64,000 bases of DNA from an uncultured Gammaproteobacteria bacterium (GCA_964520615.1 CAZFNL010000137.1:84898-148897), one strand, 5' to 3'. Counted from the stretch's first letter, positions 1,905 to 45,844 are shown. Notes: generated by a model not told the origin, from the letters alone. Numbers and translations: made by a program.

Positions 1905-3092
1905 TTAAATTATCTCTTTATAAACATCTTCCGTTCTCTCAACAATTTTATCTATAGAATACTCATTTTTAACCATTCTATTGGCATTTCTCCCGAAATA
2001 ACTGCGGAAATTTTCCCGTTTCAAGATCTCTTCCAAACCCTGTGCTATCTTTTTCGCATTATTATCAACTATTTTGCCCGCGTCGTATTCTATGATTCTG
2101 TCAAAACCTGATTTATCAGATAACAGAAGAGGTAGATTGCAAGCGGCCGCCTCTAACGCGGAAATAGGCATACCCTCAGCGTAGGAAGTCAAAGCAAATA
2201 CATGAGCAGCTGATAAAGCCGCCAGCTTAGCCCTTCCCGTAAGATTACCGGCAAAAATTACCGCTTTTTCCAAACCATTACTCCTTGTTGTCATCTTTAA
2301 GTCGTCCAGATATTCTTTTTTTTCTGCAGGCCCTGCAATCACTAGTTTAATATTGTCTTTTTTATAATGTATATATAATAGTGATTTTATCAGAAGCTCA
2401 ATTCCTTTTTTGGGATGTATCCGTCCAAGAAAAAGAATGACACAATCGTTTTCTTTTAATCCCCATTGACTACGAAATTCAACTTTTTTGGGAAGTTTTA
2501 GGAATAGATTAGCGTCAATACCGTTAGGAATTACTATCACATTTTTCTTATTAATCCCCAATTTCAAATATGATTTTTTCTCTTCCTCTGTCAGGGCGAT
2601 AATTTTTGCCGCTCCCAAAAGGAGTTTTTTGCCGCCAAATTGGTAAAATAACTTTTTCCTTCCTAGATTACCTTCTTTTTCCGACATCTTGGCCGTACCG
2701 TGTCCCGACAATATATAAGGGATGCCCTTTTTTTTTGCCCAAAAAGCCGCCCACAAATGCATTGGGGTATATATTTCATGCATATGGATTATGTCAAAAT
2801 CTGAGATAGTTCTTATAAGTTTAAGGAAAAAAGCTGGCGGGGAAAAAATATGTTTTTTGAAGGCAAGATTTCCGGAAATATTTTTGAAGTAATAAACGCC
2901 AAATCCTTCAATCCTTATTTTTTTATTTGTCTGTGCTTTAATACTATCTGTATCGCTGCCTAAATCAGTAGTAAATACTATCACTTCATGACCATGTTTT
3001 ACCAATTCTCGGCTTAGATTATATACTGCCGTTGCGCTTCCTCCAACTGAAAGAGCTGGAAAAAAGTATGGGACTAATTGAAGAATTTTCAT
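1905..3092 (-). CDS. Glycosyltransferase family 4 (GT-B, Glycos_transf_1).
   Basis: 395 aa. The N-terminus MKILQLVPYFFPALSVGGSATAVYNLSRELVKHGHEV is a GT4 N-domain, and the C-terminal half EGMPISALEAAACNLPLLLS is a retaining GT-B motif. Confidence 0.85.
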   Translation of the reverse strand: MKILQLVPYFFPALSVGGSATAVYNLSRELVKHGHEVIVFTTDLGSDTDSIKAQTNKKIRIEGFGVYYFKNISGNLAFKKHIFSPPAFFLKLIRTISDFDIIHMHEIYTPMHLWAAFWAKKKGIPYILSGHGTAKMSEKEGNLGRKKLFYQFGGKKLLLGAAKIIALTEEEKKSYLKLGINKKNVIVIPNGIDANLFLKLPKKVEFRSQWGLKENDCVILFLGRIHPKKGIELLIKSLLYIHYKKDNIKLVIAGPAEKKEYLDDLKMTTRSNGLEKAVIFAGNLTGRAKLAALSAAHVFALTSYAEGMPISALEAAACNLPLLLSDKSGFDRIIEYDAGKIVDNNAKKIAQGLEEILKRENFRSYFGRNANRMVKNEYSIDKIVERTEDVYKEII

Positions 3093-4798
3093 TTAGTAAT
3101 CAGATAATCTTCCAGTATCATTGCGTCCAGTCCTGAATTTTCAAAAGTGGAAAGAGCAACGTCAGGAGTACCCACTATTGGAAACCCATGCAGGTTAAAT
3201 GAAGTATTAAGGAGTCCCGCAACACCAGTCAGTTTTTTAAATTCGGTCAATATGCCTCTGTAACCGGGATTCCAGTTATCTACCGTCTGCGGTCTACATG
3301 TTCTGTCATATGGATGAAGCCCGGCAACAATCTCGTCTGCTCTTTCTTTTGTGTCGAAAGCCTCAATCATATATCTGGCAGGTTTTTGGTAATCTTTCAA
3401 ATATTTATCTGAATCCTCCTCCAGAATGGAGGCGGCAAAAGGCATCCAAAAATCCCTTTGCTTTATGGCAAAGTTTAATTTTGAAATCACCCGCAAATCT
3501 CTTGGATCAGCCAGAATACTGCGATTACCCAATGCTCTAGGCCCCCACTCGTCCCGGCCGGCAAACCTGGCGACAATTTTACCACTGTTTAACAGTTTAG
3601 CGGTTTCTTTTGCCATCCCCTTCTCCAATTTCACGGCTTTCTTTTTCCATTTTGATTTTTTTAGTAAACTGTCGACTTCTTCAGAGGAATATTTTTGTCC
3701 GAGATACAAATCTCCAAGCGGCTCAACCTCAGCCTTTATTTTCATCTCCTGACACAATCTGACATAACCTTCAATGGCAACCCCGGCTGGAGTCCCGCCG
3801 TCATCAGCTGCCGGATAGAAAAAAGCTTTTTTCACTTCTGGCATTTCCCTTATTACTTTGTTTGCCTTCACATTGAGAAATGAACCTCCGCTTGCGGCCA
3901 CGTTATGCACTCCGGTATGAGCTATTGCATTTTTTACCCATTGTGAAACCAGATCTTCAAAATATTTCTGTGTTGCAAAGGCAATATTGTCAAATCTGCG
4001 CCCGGCAAGAATAGAAGCAAGATTTCTAGTGACATCATATAGATAAGCACCGAAAATATTCTGGAACTCCAGGGGTCTTCCCGGATTTATCCTGATGATT
4101 TTTTTGAATTCATCCATCAGTCCGTCATCCCTGCCGTATGGCGCGAGTCCCATCACCTTGTACTCATGTTCCCAGCGTTTCATCCCGAGGTACCCGGTTA
4201 TCTCACTGTAAATATTGTTGGACAGGCTGTCATAAAATGTCGTTTCGGCAACTCTTTTGATTTTATTATTTTTACCTACTGAAACCGTAGCGGATAACCC
4301 GTCCCCCGACCCGTCCAGTGTAAGAATTAATGTTTCATCCTGAAAACCTGAACCGTAATAAGCGCAGGCGGCGTGGCTCAGATGATGGTCAATAAAAATG
4401 ATTTTTTTCTCCCCAATCCCAAGACTTTCAAATAGATCCTTCAGTCGACCTGTTTGCCTGAACTTATGAAGAAGTTTTACATATGCTTTTGCAAAAAGAT
4501 GTGAATGAAGGTATGGTGCCAGTTCGACCTGAAGCCTTCCCAGCCAGTTGATGTCAGCATATGGTGGACCCACACGGACAAAACAGCCTATGGCGATAAG
4601 GTCGGTTTGCTCAGGCGGTATCCCCGCAATTTCAAAAACTTTGGCAATGGCAAATACCGGCACGCCGGAATAATTCTTTATGTTATTCAGCCTCTCCTCG
4701 GATATGGCTGAAAGTATTTTCCCGTCACGAAGGAGTGCCGCCCCCGCATTGTGCCCGTCATGAATACCCAAAACAGTAAGATGATTTTTCTTATCCAT
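3089..4798 (-). CDS. Carbamoyltransferase, NodU/CmcH (HypF-like) family.
   Basis: 569 aa. The N-terminus LTVLGIHDGHNAGAALLRDGKILSAISEERLNNIK is typical of NodU/CmcH O-carbamoyltransferases, and the length fits the family. It overlaps the downstream GT4 by 4 nt. Confidence 0.85.
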   Translation of the reverse strand: MDKKNHLTVLGIHDGHNAGAALLRDGKILSAISEERLNNIKNYSGVPVFAIAKVFEIAGIPPEQTDLIAIGCFVRVGPPYADINWLGRLQVELAPYLHSHLFAKAYVKLLHKFRQTGRLKDLFESLGIGEKKIIFIDHHLSHAACAYYGSGFQDETLILTLDGSGDGLSATVSVGKNNKIKRVAETTFYDSLSNNIYSEITGYLGMKRWEHEYKVMGLAPYGRDDGLMDEFKKIIRINPGRPLEFQNIFGAYLYDVTRNLASILAGRRFDNIAFATQKYFEDLVSQWVKNAIAHTGVHNVAASGGSFLNVKANKVIREMPEVKKAFFYPAADDGGTPAGVAIEGYVRLCQEMKIKAEVEPLGDLYLGQKYSSEEVDSLLKKSKWKKKAVKLEKGMAKETAKLLNSGKIVARFAGRDEWGPRALGNRSILADPRDLRVISKLNFAIKQRDFWMPFAASILEEDSDKYLKDYQKPARYMIEAFDTKERADEIVAGLHPYDRTCRPQTVDNWNPGYRGILTEFKKLTGVAGLLNTSFNLHGFPIVGTPDVALSTFENSGLDAMILEDYLITK

Positions 4799-4876
4799 AA
4801 CTCTCTAATCTAAAAACTCTACAATTATACAATAGAACCTCTCTTCCTGCCCAAAAACATTCCAATTTCTTATTTT

Positions 4877-4938
4877 TAATTCCTAATTCCTAATTCATTA
4901 TTCATAATTCCTAATTCATAATTCCTTATTCTTAATTC
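4877..4938. repeat. Heptanucleotide tandem repeat (TAATTCC/TAATTCA/TTATTCA), about 9 copies, in the divergent intergenic region.
   Basis: Direct reading: taattcc taattcc taattca ttattca taattcc taattca taattcc ttattc ttaattc. It lies between the divergently transcribed carbamoyltransferase operon and rfbF. Confidence 0.85.
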
Positions 4939-4952
4939 AGCAGACAAATAAC

Positions 4953-4981
4953 TTACAACTAAATACTCTTTCTGCTATAAT
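4953..4981 (+). promoter_or_regulatory. Sigma70-like promoter candidate: TTACAA, 17-nt spacer, TATAAT, ending 9 nt before the rfbF ATG (near-leaderless).
   Basis: TTACAA at 4953-4958, a 17-nt spacer, and TATAAT at 4976-4981. The ATG is at 4991. I saw no Shine-Dalgarno sequence. Confidence 0.4.
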
Positions 4982-4990
4982 CCAGGCTAT

Positions 4991-5770
4991 ATGAAGACAA
5001 TCATACTCTGCGGAGGAACAGGTACCAGGCTTAAAGAAGAAACGGAATACAAGCCAAAACCGATGATAAACGTCGGCGGCAAGCCCATCATTTGGCATAT
5101 CATGAAAATATACGCCCACTGGGGCTTCAATGAGTTTATTCTGGCGCTGGGCTATAAGGCCAACTATATCAAGGACTTTTTCCTCAACCAGAAAGCTTTT
5201 ACCACAGACTTTACACTAGAAACAAAAACACACAAAACTTCCTACCACTGGGAGCATAGAAAAGAAGTGGATGATTTCAAAATCACATTTGTCGATACCG
5301 GCATGGATACTCTTCCGGGAGAAAGGATTCTTCTCTGTGAGAGCTACATCCCCAAAAGCGATAAGGATTTTATGGTGACATACGGCGACGGCGTGACGGA
5401 TCTTGATATCGTAAAACTTGTGAAGTTCCACAAGAAACAAAACACAATAGGAACCATAACCGGAATCCATCCCAAATTTAAGTTTGGAGTGGTAAAAGTA
5501 GGAAACAACAATAAGATACAGGAGTTTAAGGAAAAACCATACATGTCTGATTGGGCAAACGGAGGATATATGGTTTTCAAGAGGGATTATTTCAAATACC
5601 AGAAGCCGAAAGAATTGGAACACGCCGCTCTTGCCCGCCTAGCCAAAATTTCACAGCTCTCCATTTACAAACACACAGGTTTCTGGTTTGCTGTCGACAC
5701 TAACAAAGAATATGACCAACTGAACGGCATCTGGGAAAGCGGCAATCCGCCGTGGAAAGTATGGAAGTGA
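4991..5770 (+). CDS. rfbF: Glucose-1-phosphate cytidylyltransferase.
   Basis: 259 aa. MKTIILCGGTGTRLKEETEYKPKPMINVGGKPIIWHIMKIYAHWGFNEFILALGYKANYIKDFF is the canonical RfbF/DdhA N-terminus, and the length is typical. Confidence 0.9.
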   Translation: MKTIILCGGTGTRLKEETEYKPKPMINVGGKPIIWHIMKIYAHWGFNEFILALGYKANYIKDFFLNQKAFTTDFTLETKTHKTSYHWEHRKEVDDFKITFVDTGMDTLPGERILLCESYIPKSDKDFMVTYGDGVTDLDIVKLVKFHKKQNTIGTITGIHPKFKFGVVKVGNNNKIQEFKEKPYMSDWANGGYMVFKRDYFKYQKPKELEHAALARLAKISQLSIYKHTGFWFAVDTNKEYDQLNGIWESGNPPWKVWK

Positions 5771-5774
5771 AATT

Positions 5775-5812
5775 TGGTTATGGGTTGTCGGTTGTGAGTT
5801 GTGAGTGTATTT
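5775..5812. repeat. Heptanucleotide tandem repeat (GGTTGTG-type), 4-5 copies, in the intergenic region after rfbF.
   Basis: ggttatg ggttgtc ggttgtg agttgtg agtgtat, followed by a T6 run. Confidence 0.6.
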
Positions 5813-5860
5813 TTTAGTTCCAACTTTTCTAATTTCTGAAATCTAGAATCTATTTTAATT

Positions 5861-6898
5861 ATGCCGAATAAATACAGAAACATTCTCGTCACCGGTGCCA
5901 CAGGCTTTGTCGGCTCCCACCTGACAGAAGAACTAGTAAAAACAGGAGCAAAGGTTACTGCCACCACTCACCATCCTGTAGCGCGCAATTCCTATTTTGC
6001 CTCAAAGCATCTCGGACGAAAAACAAAAGTGGTACAAATAGAACTGGCTGACTATAAATCAGTTGGAAAGCTGATTTCAGAAACAAAATCTGACTGTATT
6101 TATCACCTGGCCGCCCAACCTGTAGTCGATACAGCTTTCCGGGATCCTAAAGCAACACTATATTCAAATATAGTCGGTACGATAAACCTTCTTGAAGCGG
6201 CAAGAAGATACGGCAAAACCCGAGCAATTGTCATCGCTTCATCGGACAAAGCGTACGGGAAAATGGAACCGGGAATGATGAATAATGAATTAAGAATAAT
6301 GAATACAAAAAAAAATAACTACCAACGACCAACTGCCAACCACCAACTAAAATATATTGAATCCGATCCTCTTCGCGGCGATCATCCCTATGAAGTCTCA
6401 AAATCCTCAGCAGACCTTATCTCCTATTCTTATTTTAAGACTTACGGCCTTCCGGTAACCATTACCCGCTTCGGCAATATTTACGGGGAAGGCGACACGC
6501 ATTTCTCCCGGATCATTCCGGGTATCATGGAGGCAATTGTGAAAAAGAAAACATTTCCTATAAGAAGCAACGGCAAATATATCCGTGACTATCTTTATGT
6601 CAAAGATGTCGTCAGGGGATATATGCTTTTGGCCCAAAATATAGGAAAAACAAAAGGAGAAGCGTACAATTTCGGCTCGGATGAATCGTTGAGTGTAGTA
6701 GATCTGATCAGCCTTCTGGAAAAAGTATTGAAAATAAAGATAAAATATAAGATTCTGGATATAGCCAAAAACGAAATCCCCTACCAGTCGCTGGACTGGA
6801 CCAGAATCAGAAAAACCCTCGGCTGGAAACCCCAATATTCTTTTGCGGATACTGCAAAAAATATTTACCTGTGGTACGCAGGATATTTTCGATCTTAA
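5861..6898 (+). CDS. rfbG: CDP-glucose 4,6-dehydratase-like enzyme (extended SDR) carrying an in-frame insertion of about 26 aa.
   Basis: 345 aa. It has the Rossmann motif VTGATGFVGSHL, then HLAAQPVV, SDKAYGK, the catalytic PYEVSK, and GYMLLAQ. It is adjacent to rfbF. The insertion reads MEPGMMNNELRIMNTKKNNYQRPTANHQLK between the SDK and YxxxK motifs, where RfbG normally has about 15 aa. Confidence 0.7.
   Translation: MPNKYRNILVTGATGFVGSHLTEELVKTGAKVTATTHHPVARNSYFASKHLGRKTKVVQIELADYKSVGKLISETKSDCIYHLAAQPVVDTAFRDPKATLYSNIVGTINLLEAARRYGKTRAIVIASSDKAYGKMEPGMMNNELRIMNTKKNNYQRPTANHQLKYIESDPLRGDHPYEVSKSSADLISYSYFKTYGLPVTITRFGNIYGEGDTHFSRIIPGIMEAIVKKKTFPIRSNGKYIRDYLYVKDVVRGYMLLAQNIGKTKGEAYNFGSDESLSVVDLISLLEKVLKIKIKYKILDIAKNEIPYQSLDWTRIRKTLGWKPQYSFADTAKNIYLWYAGYFRS
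6278..6345. repeat. Intragenic heptamer arrays (ATGAATA x4, then an A9 tract, then ACCAACN x4). These are reverse-orientation relatives of the two intergenic heptamer repeats.
   Basis: atgaata atgaatt aagaata atgaata c aaaaaaaaa taact accaacg accaact gccaacc accaact. The reverse complement resembles the repeat at 4877-4938 and the repeat at 5775-5812. Confidence 0.55.
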
Positions 6899-6901
6899 AA
6901 C

Positions 6902-7846
6902 TCAATTCTTTCTCCTGTGATCATTTATTATCCTCTCGATTATATATGTAGGCCGTTGCTTCACTTCTTCAAAGATTATCTGTATATATTTCCCCAAAAT
7001 ACTGATAGCCAACATCTGCGCTCCGCCGAAAAAGACAATAGAAAGAAGAATGGGGATTTGCGCCCTGATGGGATTACCAATCAGCAATACAGTAAATAAA
7101 TACAATAAAAGAAAAATAAAAGAAAGTAATGTCAGAAAAAATCCTAAAGTTGTCATAACATCCAAAGGTATGAATGTAAATCCAAGAAGTCCCCTTTGAG
7201 AATCTCTAATGTAATCGAAAAATGTATTCTTGCTTCTACCATACTTTCTTGCGGCTCTTTCGTATTCTACTTTGGCTACACGAAAACCTACCCATGCTCT
7301 CAAGCCTCTAAAAAAACGGTTCCTTTCCGGTAAATCATTTATTACATCCAATACTTTCCTATCCAATAGACAAAAACTTCCAGCCTCAAGAGGCATATCG
7401 ATATTTGAAAGTCTTTTAAAAACTAAGTAAAAGGATTTTCTGATTATTGTCATAACCGGAGTATCGTTGATTTTTTTCCTGACTCCGATTACGACCTGAG
7501 CTCCTTTTTCCCACTCATTCACAAACCTTAAAATTATATCGGGAGGATCCTGAAGGTCGCAATCAACTATTGTTAGCGCGTCCCCGATAGCATGCTTCAT
7601 CGCCGCTTGTGAGGAATATTCGGAAGTGAAATTGCGTGACATAAAAAGCGCGGTTGCTTTTTTGTCATTCCGGCAAATTTTTTTTATCACTTCTCTTGAC
7701 TTGTCCAAACTGGCATTATCCGCAAACACTATCTCATAATCATATTTGCCCAATTTCTTCATCGTTTTTACTATTTCTCCATATGCATAGGAAATATTAT
7801 CCTCCTCATTGTAAGTAGGGACTATGATGGATATAGTTTTTTTCAT
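6902..7846 (-). CDS. GT2 polyprenyl-phosphate sugar synthase (GtrB/ArnC/DPM1-like) with a C-terminal 2-TM anchor.
   Basis: 314 aa. ISIIVPTYNEEDNISYAYGEIV..YEIVFADNASLDKS is a GT-A motif with DxD. The C-terminus FIPLDVMTTLGFFLTLLSFIFLLLYLFTVLLIG..ILLSIVFFGGAQMLAISILGKY forms the two TM helices characteristic of GtrB/ArnC. Confidence 0.8.
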   Translation of the reverse strand: MKKTISIIVPTYNEEDNISYAYGEIVKTMKKLGKYDYEIVFADNASLDKSREVIKKICRNDKKATALFMSRNFTSEYSSQAAMKHAIGDALTIVDCDLQDPPDIILRFVNEWEKGAQVVIGVRKKINDTPVMTIIRKSFYLVFKRLSNIDMPLEAGSFCLLDRKVLDVINDLPERNRFFRGLRAWVGFRVAKVEYERAARKYGRSKNTFFDYIRDSQRGLLGFTFIPLDVMTTLGFFLTLLSFIFLLLYLFTVLLIGNPIRAQIPILLSIVFFGGAQMLAISILGKYIQIIFEEVKQRPTYIIERIINDHRRKN

Positions 7847-8643
7847 TGACGGGGAAACTTAAAACTGATTCTTTTCTGGAGCATTTTTAACCTTTTATCA
7901 TCCTCATGACATATTCTCTCGTAATAATTATTCTTATTCCTCAGCCAAAGCAGTTCAAATTCATTGGCAAGTATTATGCCTTCTTCGATTTTTCCGGAAT
8001 TTCTGGTGGTTTTGAAAACTATTTTCCGGGTTTCGTAATAATCAAGAAGTCCTTTCCGGACTAATTTTTGGATAAAAGGTATGGCTTCTTTGGCAATTCC
8101 GCCGCCCATTGCTGTTTTTAAACGCTTTTTTTTAACCTGCTCAAACATATCTTCGGCAATCTTATACATTCCGGGACTATTTATTTCCTCCCGAGAAATA
8201 CCAAGAGATCCGGACATATCCACCCGACCAAGCGTAATCTTCCCAATAAGTTCTAAATTAGGGGAACGTAATATCTCTTTTAGATTCTGGTAGGCCGTGT
8301 AAGTTTCAATATTTACTCCAAAAATTATCCTCTTCATGAGATCTTCCGGGAAATGATAATTTATTGCCTCAAGAAATTTTTTCATGGCATACGCGCTCTC
8401 TACCATAGGAGCAACAAGTCCCGTTACTCCTATATGCTGCGCTTCAAACATGTCGGTGATCGCTTCAGCACCGCCGATTTTCAATACAATTCCCAATTCG
8501 GCTTTCTCAGCAATATCTTTCAATCTCATTGCCTCATGTATTCTGACCGCCTCTGCTTCAAACTCAGCTTTCACTTCACAAACTCCATAACTCTTTTTCA
8601 TTTTTTTAAGCAATAAAACCATTTCCAGTTCCAAATCCTTCAT
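7843..8643 (-). CDS. HpcH/HpaI aldolase or PEP/pyruvate-utilising TIM-barrel family protein (tentative).
   Basis: 266 aa. Motifs GLVAPMVESAYAMKKF, GVNIETYTAYQNLKEIL and ITLGRVDMSGSLGI resemble HpcH/citrate-lyase-beta signatures. I cannot confirm this without a search. Confidence 0.4.
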   Translation of the reverse strand: MKDLELEMVLLLKKMKKSYGVCEVKAEFEAEAVRIHEAMRLKDIAEKAELGIVLKIGGAEAITDMFEAQHIGVTGLVAPMVESAYAMKKFLEAINYHFPEDLMKRIIFGVNIETYTAYQNLKEILRSPNLELIGKITLGRVDMSGSLGISREEINSPGMYKIAEDMFEQVKKKRLKTAMGGGIAKEAIPFIQKLVRKGLLDYYETRKIVFKTTRNSGKIEEGIILANEFELLWLRNKNNYYERICHEDDKRLKMLQKRISFKFPRQ

Positions 8644-8691
8644 TTTATCCTCCTTTGATAAATCATTCGGTTATTATATCGTGTATGCCTA

Positions 8692-9795
8692 TTATATTAG
8701 AAACATCCTGATGATGTCCAAAAAATTACCTAGGTCTTTCTCCAGTTCATCCGCGGTATAATCGGTAATTTTTACCAGAGACATATTTCCCTTCGGCAAT
8801 ACCAAGACCATTTTTTCCGATACTTTTTTCTTGTCCTTATTCATTCCCGAAAGTATGTGACCTTGTATAAAATTTTTTCCGTCAATTTTTAGATTGTCCA
8901 ATTTCAATAAAGGGAAAAAAATATCATCGTTTATCCGTATATTCAGCTTTTTTGACAACCAGCCTTTTCTTACACTTACGCTGTTGGCATAAATCATACC
9001 CAGTAACACTCCTATCCCGTGGGATACGCTAAAGTTTGAAGCAGATTCCAAAGCATGCCCCAGCTCATGTCCGTAATTTAAAAGATTCCGCCTGCCATGA
9101 TCAAACTCATCATTTTCCATATAACTTAATTTTATCCTTATGCAATCTTTTATTATTTCCTCTATATTTTTTTTATCAAAGAAGGACAAAACCTTTTTCA
9201 GTCTTGAGGATATTTCTTCTAACCTGCTTTGCGCGTTTTTATCCATCAAGAGCAATTTAGCAATTTCTCCCATTCCGTTGATAATATCCATCTTTTTCAG
9301 TGTTTTTAAAAATTCCGTATCTATATATATAAAATCCGGCGGGTAAAAAGTACCGATAACATTTTTATACTTATTAAAATTTAGAGATGTTTTTAATCCG
9401 ACGGCACTGTCTGCTTGTGCAAGAAGAGTAGTCGGTATATATATCCAATGGACTCCCCTGTATAAGGTTGAGACGCAATATCCTACTATATCCTGGTTTA
9501 TTCCCCCGCCAAAAGATATCACCGTCAGATTTTTTTTATACGGAAGAGGTAATAGCCATTTATAGATTTTTTCTACTGTCCTTAATGTTTTTCCGCTTTC
9601 GTCAAGTTCTAAAACTAAAAGCTTGCTTTTTTGGAATTTATCAAAAATCCTATTTTTATAAAAACCATAAACTACATTCCCGCAAATTATAACGGAATTC
9701 GGGATATTTTGGAGGTCATCCAAATACTCAAAATTATTTGAGAACCGGACGGTAAAATTTTTTATTGGAGATGTGATGAGAATGTCGCCGTTCAT
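8692..9795 (-). CDS. 3-Dehydroquinate synthase-like sugar-phosphate cyclase (DHQS superfamily).
   Basis: 367 aa. FGGGINQDIVGYCVSTLYRGVHWIYIPTTLLAQADSAVGLKTSLNF..KNVIGTFYPPDFIYID matches the DHQS core, and NYGHELGHALE matches the metal-binding His pair. Confidence 0.75.
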   Translation of the reverse strand: MNGDILITSPIKNFTVRFSNNFEYLDDLQNIPNSVIICGNVVYGFYKNRIFDKFQKSKLLVLELDESGKTLRTVEKIYKWLLPLPYKKNLTVISFGGGINQDIVGYCVSTLYRGVHWIYIPTTLLAQADSAVGLKTSLNFNKYKNVIGTFYPPDFIYIDTEFLKTLKKMDIINGMGEIAKLLLMDKNAQSRLEEISSRLKKVLSFFDKKNIEEIIKDCIRIKLSYMENDEFDHGRRNLLNYGHELGHALESASNFSVSHGIGVLLGMIYANSVSVRKGWLSKKLNIRINDDIFFPLLKLDNLKIDGKNFIQGHILSGMNKDKKKVSEKMVLVLPKGNMSLVKITDYTADELEKDLGNFLDIIRMFLI

Positions 9796-43528: not shown

Positions 43529-45844
43529 TCAAATCAAACTAGTGTAAAACGTTATTGTGTGTTCACCTTTGGGTACGACAATCGCCCGCAAAAGGAAATC
43601 AGCCTTGAGAATTTCCGCAGGTTTCTCATCAATTGATGCCTTCCATGACGGATAATAAATATCAGTCAAAACCAACAATCTGTCTTCAGTTGTAACCACC
43701 TTAATCTGGACATCATTTGCCTCATAATGAACAATCTCTGCTTTATCATTTTCTAACCCTTTCTTCTGAGGTTTGATATCCACATTCTTATTCAACACCA
43801 CCGTATTCCTTAAATTATCGGCAAGTGAATACATCTTGTCCATCTCTTCCTGGGGATTTGAGGCAATGACAATATTTCCAGCAAAAAAAGCCCTCGGGAA
43901 AAACTTCGTATTTTCATAAAGGTAAGTATTTCCCTCAGTCATGATATATCTTAACTTTGATGATTTTAGCGGTCCGAAACTAAGTATATACTTTACCCCC
44001 AATAGATCTGAAAAGAAACTGTCGTAATTTGAAGGAGTTACAATCCTGTTGAAGGATGCGGCATCTATATCCGTCTTACCCCTTCCCCATGAAGCCGCAA
44101 ACCGATTGTACAACAAAAGATATAAAGGATCATATCCTGCTACATCCTGTAATTTGTAGTAGACAGAAAAATTCGGAGGCATTATACGTCTGTCCGTAGC
44201 CATAATTCTAAAATTGCTTTTGTTGTCTCTTTTTATAAAATTAGTGACGGTTGTTGGAGGATAAAGGAATTCGCTTTTGGAAAATGGGGTAAATTTCCAA
44301 CCAAACCTGAAAATCTCTGCAATAAAAATGATAATTAGCAAAAAAAATAGAGGGACTTTATTATTCATCTTCTTTGACGCTACCCACAGCAATAATACCG
44401 CAGAAAACAAATATACAATACTGGGCAAGAAAAGATTTCTTTTAGAGACGGAAATGTCCGCCGCCGAAATATTCAGCTTAAAAAGAGAAAATTTCAAAAC
44501 AAATATCCAAAGAAGAATAAAAACTGCGGCAACAGGAATTAAAACACACAATATTTTCCTTATATTTTTATCTGATGAAATTTTTTCATAACCCAATGCC
44601 GAAAGAATTGAAAGAGAAAAATCCACAAGAAACATCAATCTTGTGGGCTGACTTGAAGAAAGAAGAGGAATATGCAAACTGAAAGGCAGCATTGAAAATA
44701 CATTTGGCAAGGCAAAAATAAGACTGAGGAAAAAAACGGTACCGAAAAAAAGGACCTTCTTGCTATAGTGGAATACAAGTGCATACAAGGCAAAAATAAG
44801 AGGCAAAATTCCTATAAAACCTACAAACTCGCCATAATTCCAGACTCCCCAATAGTTATTTGTGGCAGGATTACCGAAAAAGTCAGGAGCAATAAACTGA
44901 ACGAGGTTTTGCCAGGGAAGAAACCAACCAGCAACATGCGTATAGTTTCCCTGATCGACATTTCTAGCTGAAAGCAGGATGAAACGCAGTGAAGGCAACC
45001 ATTGGACTAGTGTCAAAATAACAAATAACAAATAACAAAATAAAAAAAGCAAAATGATCCTGAGTTTATTTTTCCTCGCCAGTAAAATTTTGATCGCTAA
45101 ATAGAAATTAGTGACTATAAACTCATAAAAGAAAATCTGCAAATGTCCGGCAAAAAAAGAGAAAATTAAGGAAAAAGTAAAAATCCCTACCCAGATAATT
45201 ATCTTCTTTTTTTTTGCTTGTAGTTTTGAGTTTTGAAGATTACTGATAGCTTGAATAATTTTCTCAATTGATAACAGTAATAATGGAAGCCAGAGTGCGG
45301 TTTGTAAAACTGTATTCCACTCCAACCAAGCAATGCTGAAACCTGAAAAAGCAAATGCTACGGATCCTATAAAAGCACCCGTTTCCCCTACCCCGATTTC
45401 CTTCAAATAAAAATATAAAAACATTCCCGCAAGAAGAGGTTGGACAATAATAAGAATTGTCCAGGCGACATCAAACGGCAGAAATATAAATAAGGTATTC
45501 AGTGGATAAAAAGATGCTGACTGGAAATTGGCTAAAAGTGGCGTACCGGAAAATGAGTAAGGATTCCAAAGAGGCAGTACACCATTTACCATTTGTGACA
45601 TTGCTGCATACCGCCAGACATATTGTTGTCGTACTGGATCAGTCGTCAGAAAGTTTTTGTAGGGAACACCTGCCGGATAACCGGCAAAAGACACATCCTT
45701 AAAAGGATAATACATGCCTGTTATGGTGTCGGCAGGAATGGGAAGTTTACCCTGCAAAAAGACCGGGTAAAAAAAAATGATAATTAAGAATAATATAAGA
45801 AATAGGAAAAAACTATTCCGAAAGAATTTGGTCAATCTTTTCAT
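43529..45844 (-). CDS. YfhO-family polytopic membrane protein (GT-C candidate), long form.
   Basis: 771 aa. The N-terminus is PADTITGMYYPFKD..LPLWNPYSFSGTPLLANFQSASFYPLN. There are at least 12 TM segments. The C-terminal domain is DIYYPSWKASIDEKPAEIL..VVPKGEHTITF. Both ends resemble B. subtilis YfhO-type proteins. Confidence 0.55.
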   Translation of the reverse strand: MKRLTKFFRNSFFLFLILFLIIIFFYPVFLQGKLPIPADTITGMYYPFKDVSFAGYPAGVPYKNFLTTDPVRQQYVWRYAAMSQMVNGVLPLWNPYSFSGTPLLANFQSASFYPLNTLFIFLPFDVAWTILIIVQPLLAGMFLYFYLKEIGVGETGAFIGSVAFAFSGFSIAWLEWNTVLQTALWLPLLLLSIEKIIQAISNLQNSKLQAKKKKIIIWVGIFTFSLIFSFFAGHLQIFFYEFIVTNFYLAIKILLARKNKLRIILLFLFCYLLFVILTLVQWLPSLRFILLSARNVDQGNYTHVAGWFLPWQNLVQFIAPDFFGNPATNNYWGVWNYGEFVGFIGILPLIFALYALVFHYSKKVLFFGTVFFLSLIFALPNVFSMLPFSLHIPLLSSSQPTRLMFLVDFSLSILSALGYEKISSDKNIRKILCVLIPVAAVFILLWIFVLKFSLFKLNISAADISVSKRNLFLPSIVYLFSAVLLLWVASKKMNNKVPLFFLLIIIFIAEIFRFGWKFTPFSKSEFLYPPTTVTNFIKRDNKSNFRIMATDRRIMPPNFSVYYKLQDVAGYDPLYLLLYNRFAASWGRGKTDIDAASFNRIVTPSNYDSFFSDLLGVKYILSFGPLKSSKLRYIMTEGNTYLYENTKFFPRAFFAGNIVIASNPQEEMDKMYSLADNLRNTVVLNKNVDIKPQKKGLENDKAEIVHYEANDVQIKVVTTEDRLLVLTDIYYPSWKASIDEKPAEILKADFLLRAIVVPKGEHTITFYTSLI

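Follow-up and report, generated by a model that had tools for sequence, protein, structure and literature searches.

Heptanucleotide arrays in and around a CDP-glucose 4,6-dehydratase-like gene: a probable tolerated insertion in a variable enzyme loop

Introduction

How does a gene for a sugar-nucleotide dehydratase come to contain seven-base repeats, and do such repeats switch the gene, move between sites, or are they simply tolerated? The question is raised by a 64,000-nt (64-kb) stretch of DNA (GCA_964520615.1, CAZFNL010000137.1:84898-148897; hereafter the window), in which heptanucleotide arrays are found upstream of an rfbF-like gene, between this gene and an adjacent gene for a CDP-glucose 4,6-dehydratase-like enzyme, and inside the latter. 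The initial annotation proposed either a phase-variation (contingency) locus or the footprint of a small repeat element that had inserted in inverse orientation. Our analysis favours a different answer, to which we assign a probability of about 0.6: the coding tract is simple-sequence DNA inserted into a surface loop of an extended short-chain dehydrogenase/reductase (SDR) dehydratase, a hypervariable loop in which it is translated and tolerated.

Repeat arrays of the locus

The following features carry the argument (window coordinates).
4859-4938, plus strand: upstream heptamer array, a T-rich lead-in followed by ~9 TAATTCN units (11.6 copies with 78% matches according to Tandem Repeats Finder, TRF)
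5771-5860, plus strand: spacer between rfbF and the dehydratase gene, 90 nt of simple sequence, lineage-specific
5861-6898, plus strand: open reading frame (ORF) of the extended-SDR sugar-nucleotide dehydratase, CDP-glucose 4,6-dehydratase-like, intact and with all catalytic motifs
6266-6349, plus strand: in-frame simple-sequence tract inside the dehydratase ORF, residues 136-163 (EPGMMNNELRIMNTKKNNYQRPTANHQL)

Period-7 arrays were called with TRF and strict runs of a unit by pattern match. TRF confirms four arrays, at 4859-4938, 5776-5806, 6273-6305 and 6317-6349, and the repeats described initially are all recovered. Upstream of rfbF about nine tandem copies of TAATTC(C/A) had been claimed, and the strict TAATTCN run indeed extends from 4877 to 4938 with ~9 copies; within the full array TRF additionally reports higher-order periods of 14, 21 and 28. 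The region after rfbF, said to hold four to five copies of GGTTGTG followed by a T run, consists of ~4.4 GGTTGTG-type units (5776-5806), a T6 run (5811-5816) and degenerate TAATTTC-like units (5829-5853). The succession of heptamers, A9 and ACCAACN reported inside the rfbG-like gene is also present: a left array of GAATNAT-type units (TRF consensus GAATAAT; 6273-6305, 4.7 copies) is joined by an A9 run (6307-6315) to a right array of ACCAACN units (TRF consensus AACTACC; 6317-6349, 4.7 copies), and the entire insert keeps one 7-nt register. A period of 7 inside ORF 5861-6898 means, as the initial annotation pointed out, a unit length that is not divisible by 3.

Read as its reverse complement, the coding tract has the form [GTTGGNN]4, T9, [TTATTCN]5. 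On the plus strand the spacer shows its parts in the matching order, namely [GGTTGTG]4, T6 and TAATTTC-like units. By this comparison the three tracts appear to have a common module, [GTTGNNN]n, T-run, [TAATTCN]n, which is readable on either strand. In the window, which has a G+C content of 38%, the period-7 skeleton CAACNNNCAACNNNCAAC has 5 matches against 0.19 expected in shuffles, and the skeleton ATTCNNNATTCNNNATTC has 14 against 1.21, with 12 of the 14 at the locus. The skeletons with ATTC and with CAAC at period 7 thereby far exceed the shuffles and are essentially confined to the locus, and a search of the 64 kb for further arrays of the TAATTCC and GGTTGTG type found essentially none elsewhere. 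As in long simple sequence repeats (LSSRs), the arrays are head-to-tail copies of a unit of 5-11 nt, beyond the length expected by chance.

A heptamer array of another sequence occurs in a second coding region of the same window. It is a perfect (AAATAAC) x3.4 array at 45015-45047, inside a long minus-strand ORF, where it encodes part of a hydrophobic segment near the N-terminus (..FFLFLILFLIIIF..) of a membrane-type protein of ~626 aa. Some 180 nt away, a short array, (AGTTTTG) x2, stands beside a T9 run (45222-45236).

The insert in the enzyme

The ORF at 5861-6898 reads ...SSDKAYGKMEPGMMNNELRIMNTKKNNYQRPTANHQLKYIESDPLRGDHPYEVSK... across the insert. The loop in which the insert is found is flanked by the SSDK strand and the YxxxK helix and counts 39 aa, against a baseline of 13-14 aa. 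Across the tract, the reading frame of the dehydratase is the only open one. The unit found in codon phase 0 is GAATTAA, whereas the commoner GAATAAT would create a TAA stop at that phase; the single open frame and the avoidance of TAA together fit an old, selected and translated tract.

An AlphaFold2 model predicts a confident SDR core (mean pLDDT, the predicted local distance difference test, of 84.8), while residues 138-161 score below 50. The top Foldseek matches are the CDP-glucose 4,6-dehydratases 1wvg and 1rkx, and a long loop is found at the equivalent position in solved relatives such as CDP-tyvelose 2-epimerase. The insertion is therefore in frame and at a surface site, with the predicted host fold intact: the frame is open, the core confident and the motifs are preserved. 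On the preferred explanation the tract would be translated as a disordered excursion of ~25 residues which the enzyme tolerates.

At the RNA level the insert is unstructured on both strands, with -3.3 kcal/mol (z +1.55) for the plus strand and -8.2 kcal/mol (z +1.08) for the minus strand. A hairpin, terminator or riboswitch-like RNA was considered and rejected, as folds are no better than those of shuffles and the spacer lacks a terminator (no terminator hairpin at 5771-5860, fold z -0.8). An intron, intein or translational bypass was likewise discarded for a tract that is 69-84 nt long, in frame, stop-free and unstructured.

Origin of the tracts

The closest ortholog is present in three assemblies (L001-L003 in our numbering of related loci) and is 71-75% identical. 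It lacks 69 nt (23 codons) of the coding tract, aligned as 6265-6333, so that the comparison with an insertion-free ortholog proposed at the outset can be made; together with the loop length it supports the original claim of an in-frame insertion between the SDK and YxxxK motifs. The whole 90-nt spacer is missing as well: in the ortholog the rfbF stop and the dehydratase start are 1 nt apart. At the insertion site the ortholog has TCTCAAT x2, which aligns with the last two ACCAACN units, and for this reason the right-hand array looks as if it has grown in place from two ancestral units. Conservation of the insertion at the amino-acid level, named beforehand as the outcome that would speak for a structural loop, was not found in relatives. 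The idea that the A9 run is a remnant of an ancestral KKK-coding loop A-tract was dropped, since the nearest relatives have no such tract.

The initial annotation regarded the coding arrays as reverse-complement relatives of the flanking arrays. For the left half this stands: it matches the reverse complement of 4893-4925 in the upstream array at 29 of 33 nt (88%; blastn-short, which also gives 24/26), and with the A-run included its alignment to the inverted upstream array extends over 47 columns and reaches z = 9 against shuffles. There is also an echo at the peptide level, with GMMNNELRI in the insert and GIMNNELGI in the translated upstream array. For the right half the match to the reverse complement of the spacer is weaker (25 of 33 nt, ~76%; z = 1.5) and not significant on its own. 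The coding arrays are relatives of the flanking arrays and not copies of them. The related claim of an inverted repeat-DNA footprint holds in part: the similarity of the left half and the missing tract in the closest ortholog agree with it, but there is no hairpin and the right array points to growth in place. That the flanking repeats reappear inverted is thus correct as regards the left half, and for the tract as a whole it is plausible.

The two strains that carry L001 and L002 are 99.2-99.8% identical and differ by a single gap in ~21 kb. This is a 33-nt indel (ATCCCGTCTCAACGGGACATAGCCCGTGGATGG, with hairpin potential; L001 9145-9199, L002 9178-9199) in a heptamer-like spacer upstream of rfbF.

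Length stability

Contigs of the same species were reached in Logan through the rfbF product and the downstream GT2 product. Five contigs from three other read sets (SRR12217121-23) cover window positions 1991-6216, 3197-6400, 2886-5832, 6187-9514 and 6751-8990; their identity is 99.98-100%, and the arrays are free of gaps. Three read sets show an unchanged upstream array; for the spacer, and likewise for the insert, two sets do so. The exact dehydratase product is not on record because every Logan contig breaks inside the gene, and the contigs of all three assemblies have ends within 5832-6400. In SRR12217122 two contigs overlap by exactly 30 nt (k-1) at 6187-6216, outside the arrays; this overlap, ~50 nt upstream of the insert, suggests a branch in the de Bruijn graph due to a strain variant or a repeat.

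Array length is also constant in two further lineages, each represented by 3 assemblies, perfect arrays included, and a search of JGI metagenomes for insert alleles of differing length, with the flanks exact and the gap variable, gave 0 matches. At the level of assembly consensus we hence found no repeat-number polymorphism. The composition of the arrays is also unlike a long run of near-identical units: in the degenerate coding arrays the matches amount to 76-80% and each unit differs from its neighbour, and in the upstream array they amount to 78%. The A9 run is ordinary, being one of 8 A/T runs of 9 nt in the 64 kb, in which 38 runs reach at least 8 and 123 at least 7, and none reaches 10 or more. 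This sharp stop of A/T homopolymers at 9 nt could mean selection against longer runs or a limit of assembly or sequencing.

Repeats in related loci

To place the locus in its clade we surveyed 82 related Microgenomates loci (1.34 Mb, dehydratase-centred), counting arrays of at least 3 copies against block shuffles. Period-7 arrays number 78 against 9.4 in shuffles, an excess of ~8-fold. For the neighbouring periods the values are 15 against 8.6 (period 6), 24 against 6 (period 8) and 22 against 5 (period 9), so in these loci period 7 is over-represented relative to its neighbours, as is typical of LSSRs. In 52 of the 78 cases the array falls within an ORF that is free of stops over 150 codons or more. 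Many different units are involved, most often those of the AAGAATT family.

The loop after SSDKAYG is at least 21 aa long in 41 of 119 homolog clusters (120 clusters in the set), with mutually unrelated sequences, against 13-14 aa in most; among 80 species representatives, 10 have at least 7 extra loop residues. The motif search missed seven loci, all intact genes with normal loops. The DNA of these loop inserts is of two types. Heptamer arrays are found in L004, as (ATCCGAA)4 followed by an inverted (TTCGRAT)4 that together make a hairpin-forming inverted pair, and in L011, as (AAGTCAA)4. The inserts of L010, L012, L014, L019, L084 and L046 are strong hairpins, rich in GC, that fold with -24 to -83 kcal/mol. 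The last of these (L046 162-371) is a ~170-nt palindromic element in frame in the dehydratase loop, resembling a miniature inverted-repeat transposable element (MITE). A copy that is ~90% identical lies just upstream of rfbF in another metagenome-assembled genome (MAG; L008 205-364), the dehydratases of the two being ~60% identical.

The junction of rfbF and the dehydratase gene shows a similar picture. The two genes overlap or lie within 13 nt in 41 of 68 related species, and in the other 27 heptamer arrays or hairpin elements have added 23-563 nt to the junction. Both the dehydratase loop and the gene junction have thus been colonised repeatedly by unrelated small repeats. Elsewhere in the dehydratase gene an (AATTMAG)4 array encodes a segment of conserved length, IIKNSELRIRS; across five species the array keeps an identity of 83-93%, against 75-81% for the genes.

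Several further observations were made in these loci. The (AATTMAG) array is present in 3.4-4.3 copies at L030 10591-10619, L041 10582-10607, L048 1536-1559, L028 10323-10346 and L027 834-862. A hairpin motif, GATCCTGAAACAAGTTCAGGATGACA, and its partner AGTCATCCCGAA..TTCGGGATCC recur in the rfbF-dehydratase spacers of L012, L015 and L022 and in the L008 element at ~290-320, and look like a dispersed family of small hairpin repeats in Roizmanbacteria-type MAGs. Arrays of one unit recur at separate sites of L004 (2075 and 6435): a perfect (ATTTCGG) x4.6 at 2075-2106 lies inside an ORF for a DegT-type aminotransferase, with the unit and the coding-strand orientation of the array in the dehydratase loop of that genome. 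A second small heptamer insert, (AACAACN) x4.7, occupies another loop of the same dehydratase (6225-6257).

A metagenome scan for GAATNAT followed by CCAACNN x3 returned 23 loci (L087-L109; G+C 31-64%) in which both parts are extended into arrays; viral contigs gave 0 matches and were of no use as a control. In these loci the consecutive GAATNAT and CCAACNN arrays fill short intergenic spacers, with many other heptamer arrays per locus, of up to 19 copies, and the two unit families recur across distant genomes. A conserved composite element shared across phyla was nevertheless rejected, given that these genomes are generally rich in heptamers and each array type also occurs alone. The pairing is best read as arrays clustering in spacers and not as a conserved element.

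Genes, promoters and host

The neighbourhood of the arrays contains these further features.
3089-4798, minus strand: carbamoyltransferase (NodU/Carbam_trans type), divergent neighbour, from the ORF list (NCBIfam NodU-like, 1.3e-27)
4824-4853, minus strand: promoter-like site of the carbamoyltransferase gene, TGGGCA-18-TATAAT, consensus match only, directly left of the heptamer array
4952-4981, plus strand: promoter-like site of rfbF, CTTACA-18-TG-TATAAT, consensus match only
4991-5770, plus strand: rfbF-like glucose-1-phosphate cytidylyltransferase (TIGR02623, E 1.7e-76)

Pfam Carbam_trans_N and Carbam_trans_C were matched on the identical carbamoyltransferase gene in Logan contigs. The rfbF-like protein matches TIGR02623 over its full length with 257 bits, under the 300-bit cut-off. 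For the dehydratase the best family is TIGR02622 (CDP-glucose 4,6-dehydratase, RfbG) with 199.2 bits; the curated cut-off of 278.45 is not reached, and the match is broken into two stretches by the insert. Its GxxGxxG, SSDK and YxxxK motifs are invariant columns in the homolog alignment. The gene lies in a glycan-biosynthesis cluster with the rfbF-like gene as its operon partner, and the two are adjacent in 68 related species.

Judging by consensus matches only, the upstream array 4859-4938 sits between the divergent -35 hexamers (4853 and 4952) and outside both -35/-10 spacers, neither of which is overlapped by a repeat. The -10 region of the rfbF promoter-like site and the short leader are kept in the closest relative (alignment with L001 and L002). 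Any effect of the upstream array on these promoters would be expected to be modulatory at most. Promoter-like matches in the region number 8, against 6.1 in shuffles.

Because the homologs are labelled Patescibacteria, Microgenomates, Gottesmanbacteria or Roizmanbacteria by their sources, the organism is taken to be an ultra-small bacterium of the candidate phyla radiation (CPR), of the Microgenomates lineage.

Alternative explanations

If the locus were a contingency locus, slippage by one heptamer in 6273-6349 or of a single base in the A9 run would toggle the dehydratase, and the upstream copy number would tune the divergent promoters. Such a design is not without precedent: seven-base repeats in the promoter region modulate expression of the HMW adhesins of Haemophilus influenzae. 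A unit not divisible by 3, an A9 inside the ORF, a glycan-biosynthesis setting typical of phase variation and the contig ends of the three Logan assemblies all fit it. Slippage, however, would hardly be favoured in coding units that differ from their neighbours or in an A9 run as common as this one, and the upstream array lies outside both promoter spacers. Moreover, no gaps are seen in the same-species contigs of the three read sets nor in the perfect arrays of related lineages. In-ORF heptamer arrays are common in the clade (52/78) and one is conserved across five species, which indicates that heptamer arrays are not generally hypermutable. This half of the initial proposal was not upheld, and we consider it very improbable. 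A chimeric join or a mis-assembled repeat in the MAG would be a more trivial explanation, considering that mis-assembly classically occurs at repeats and that breaks in the Logan contigs lie close by. Three read sets, assembled independently, nonetheless give the identical sequence, two of them across the whole insert, and the tract is in frame and stop-free; an artefact is effectively refuted by these assemblies.

A discrete small mobile element deserves more attention. Such an element, [GTTGNNN]4, T-run, [TAATTCN]n, hairpin-less but otherwise comparable to MITEs or to the Rickettsia palindromic elements (RPEs), would have moved or been copied into the junction in forward and into the loop in inverted orientation. 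It would explain why the parts of the spacer (5776-5853) follow the order of those in 6266-6349 read as reverse complement, and why the closest ortholog lacks both tracts; other lineages hold clearly mobile hairpin or MITE-like DNA at these two sites, and arrays of one unit recur within a locus, as at L004 2075 and 6435. The insert itself, on the other hand, lacks terminal inverted repeats, does not form a hairpin (fold z +1.1 to +1.6) and shows no target-site duplication, and there is no further copy in the 64 kb, all partial relatives lying within 1.5 kb. The spacer-insert identity is modest with a GTTG half that is not significant, the right array has in-place ancestry in the ortholog, and the GAATNAT/CCAACNN pairings of the metagenome scan come from heptamer-rich genomes in which both array types also stand alone. 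We regard a discrete element as unlikely. The lengthened loop, or the arrays themselves as DNA or RNA, could also have been selected for a function, as a protein-protein contact, as a platform for a single-strand-binding protein that reads heptamers, or as an antisense or portable promoter. The frame that is kept open agrees with this, and so do a minus-strand promoter-like match inside the insert (TTGGCA-16-TATTTT, 6339-6312), a similar TTGTCG-17-TATTTT readable in the spacer, and the five-species heptamer array, which is conserved slightly better than the rest of its gene. Cold-shock-type proteins have furthermore been reported to bind heptamer repeats (PMC4679880). But the insert is missing in the closest ortholog and conserved in no relative, promoter-like matches are no commoner than in shuffles, the loop is predicted to be disordered, and the inserts of other lineages at this site are unrelated in sequence. 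A selected function is therefore improbable.

Comparison with known systems

Heptanucleotide LSSRs are a known but poorly understood class. They are the commonest long-repeat class in bacteria rich in simple sequence repeats, and an origin by polymerase slippage has been suggested (Mrazek 2007, after the summaries in PMC4679880 and PMC4692102). Examples described include the cyanobacterial short tandemly repeated repetitive (STRR) sequences, GGGNATC in Xanthomonas and Nostoc, and TAACTGA in Beggiatoaceae. The arrays studied here resemble LSSRs in being head-to-tail 7-nt arrays of mostly 3-12 copies, in their strong excess over other periods, in the several units per genome, in their intergenic clustering near gene starts, and in the variation of length and sequence between related species. 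They differ in their host, a CPR/Patescibacteria (Microgenomates) lineage, for which a literature search linking heptamer repeats to CPR/Patescibacteria found no paper. Furthermore, two thirds of the arrays lie in ORFs, whereas units that are not a multiple of 3 are usually reported as mainly intergenic, and no one unit dominates in the way that TAACTGA does.

RPEs are the best-known example of in-frame repeat insertions. With these and with intragenic MITEs our case shares short repeat DNA of a non-coding type, placed in frame in unrelated enzymes at positions compatible with the fold, and found between genes as well. In other lineages of the dehydratase family this loop even holds inserts that are true hairpins or MITE-like, and there terminal inverted repeats or palindromy are found. 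The window insert, in contrast, is non-palindromic and without terminal inverted repeats, comprises only 69-84 nt in two tandem heptamer arrays, and has no dispersed copies in 64 kb.

The likeness to the contingency loci of host-adapted bacteria (Haemophilus, Neisseria, Campylobacter) consists of the non-triplet unit plus homopolymer in an ORF, the array upstream of a promoter and the glycan setting. The differences are the imperfect units, the absence of length polymorphism in the assemblies, the position of the array outside the promoter spacers and the conservation across species of the same kind of array elsewhere in the dehydratase gene.

Nostoc has heptamer repeats and small dispersed hairpin repeats, as in the variable region of the tRNA-Leu intron and in what are there called SDR elements. 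The degenerate heptamer arrays, sometimes in hairpin-forming inverted pairs, have their like in L004, and small hairpin indels within heptamer-rich spacers have theirs in the 33-nt indel of L001/L002. Nostoc belongs to another phylum, however, the arrays described here are in a protein-coding loop instead of an intron, and no sequence family common to the two was demonstrated. The known kinds are thus heptanucleotide LSSRs and in-frame repeat insertions as in Rickettsia, and the locus adds a case to them.

Conclusions

Summarizing, heptamer repeats and small hairpin elements abound throughout the clade, and the three tracts of this operon are an outcome of that abundance. In the explanation that we prefer, a tolerated and translated insertion, two different heptanucleotide arrays joined by an A-run would have been written in frame into a naturally hypervariable loop. 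Most likely the three tracts arose by local copying, through template switching or ectopic repair in either orientation, with an in-place expansion of units added to it; this copying mechanism we infer. The underlying process would be the replication slippage that favours 7-nt units in many bacteria, apparently very active in this Microgenomates clade. Selection would then have retained only stop-free versions with a length that is a multiple of 3 in the frame of the gene, and the 90-nt spacer would have driven apart two genes that ancestrally abutted or overlapped.

A number of points weigh against this explanation. With the low score of the right half a single composite source is not proven, and the functional neutrality of the loop is an inference. 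The genome search extended over 64 kb, and dispersed copies elsewhere would mark a true mobile element. An assembled consensus is blind to minority length variants, and the ends of the Logan contigs within 5832-6400 could reflect low coverage, strain single-nucleotide polymorphisms or local heterogeneity.

A bolder idea, which we offer tentatively and regard as rather doubtful, is that Microgenomates (CPR) may carry an active, heptamer-specific repeat-writing process that copies arrays between nearby sites in either orientation and inserts arrays and small hairpins into junctions and permissive loops. If true, a sizeable share of protein-length variation and of broken translational coupling in CPR would stem from colonisation by simple sequences, and insertions would prefer the dehydratase loop as a target, which would make it a real hot spot and more than a tolerant site.

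For the preferred explanation the consequences are more modest. Simple-sequence DNA in the gene-dense genomes of CPR is not limited to spacers: it parts overlapping operon genes and lengthens enzyme loops. Tracts of the insert type lower the scores of family models, as illustrated by the best hidden Markov model match that is split and under its cut-off, and they make spots at which assemblies are prone to break. A non-triplet repeat in an ORF is by itself no evidence of phase variation. If the clade pattern holds genome-wide, one conserved operon with three repeatedly colonised sites in dozens of species would provide a tractable system, which would serve to study both the preference for 7 nt in bacteria and the way in which repeat DNA turns into coding sequence.

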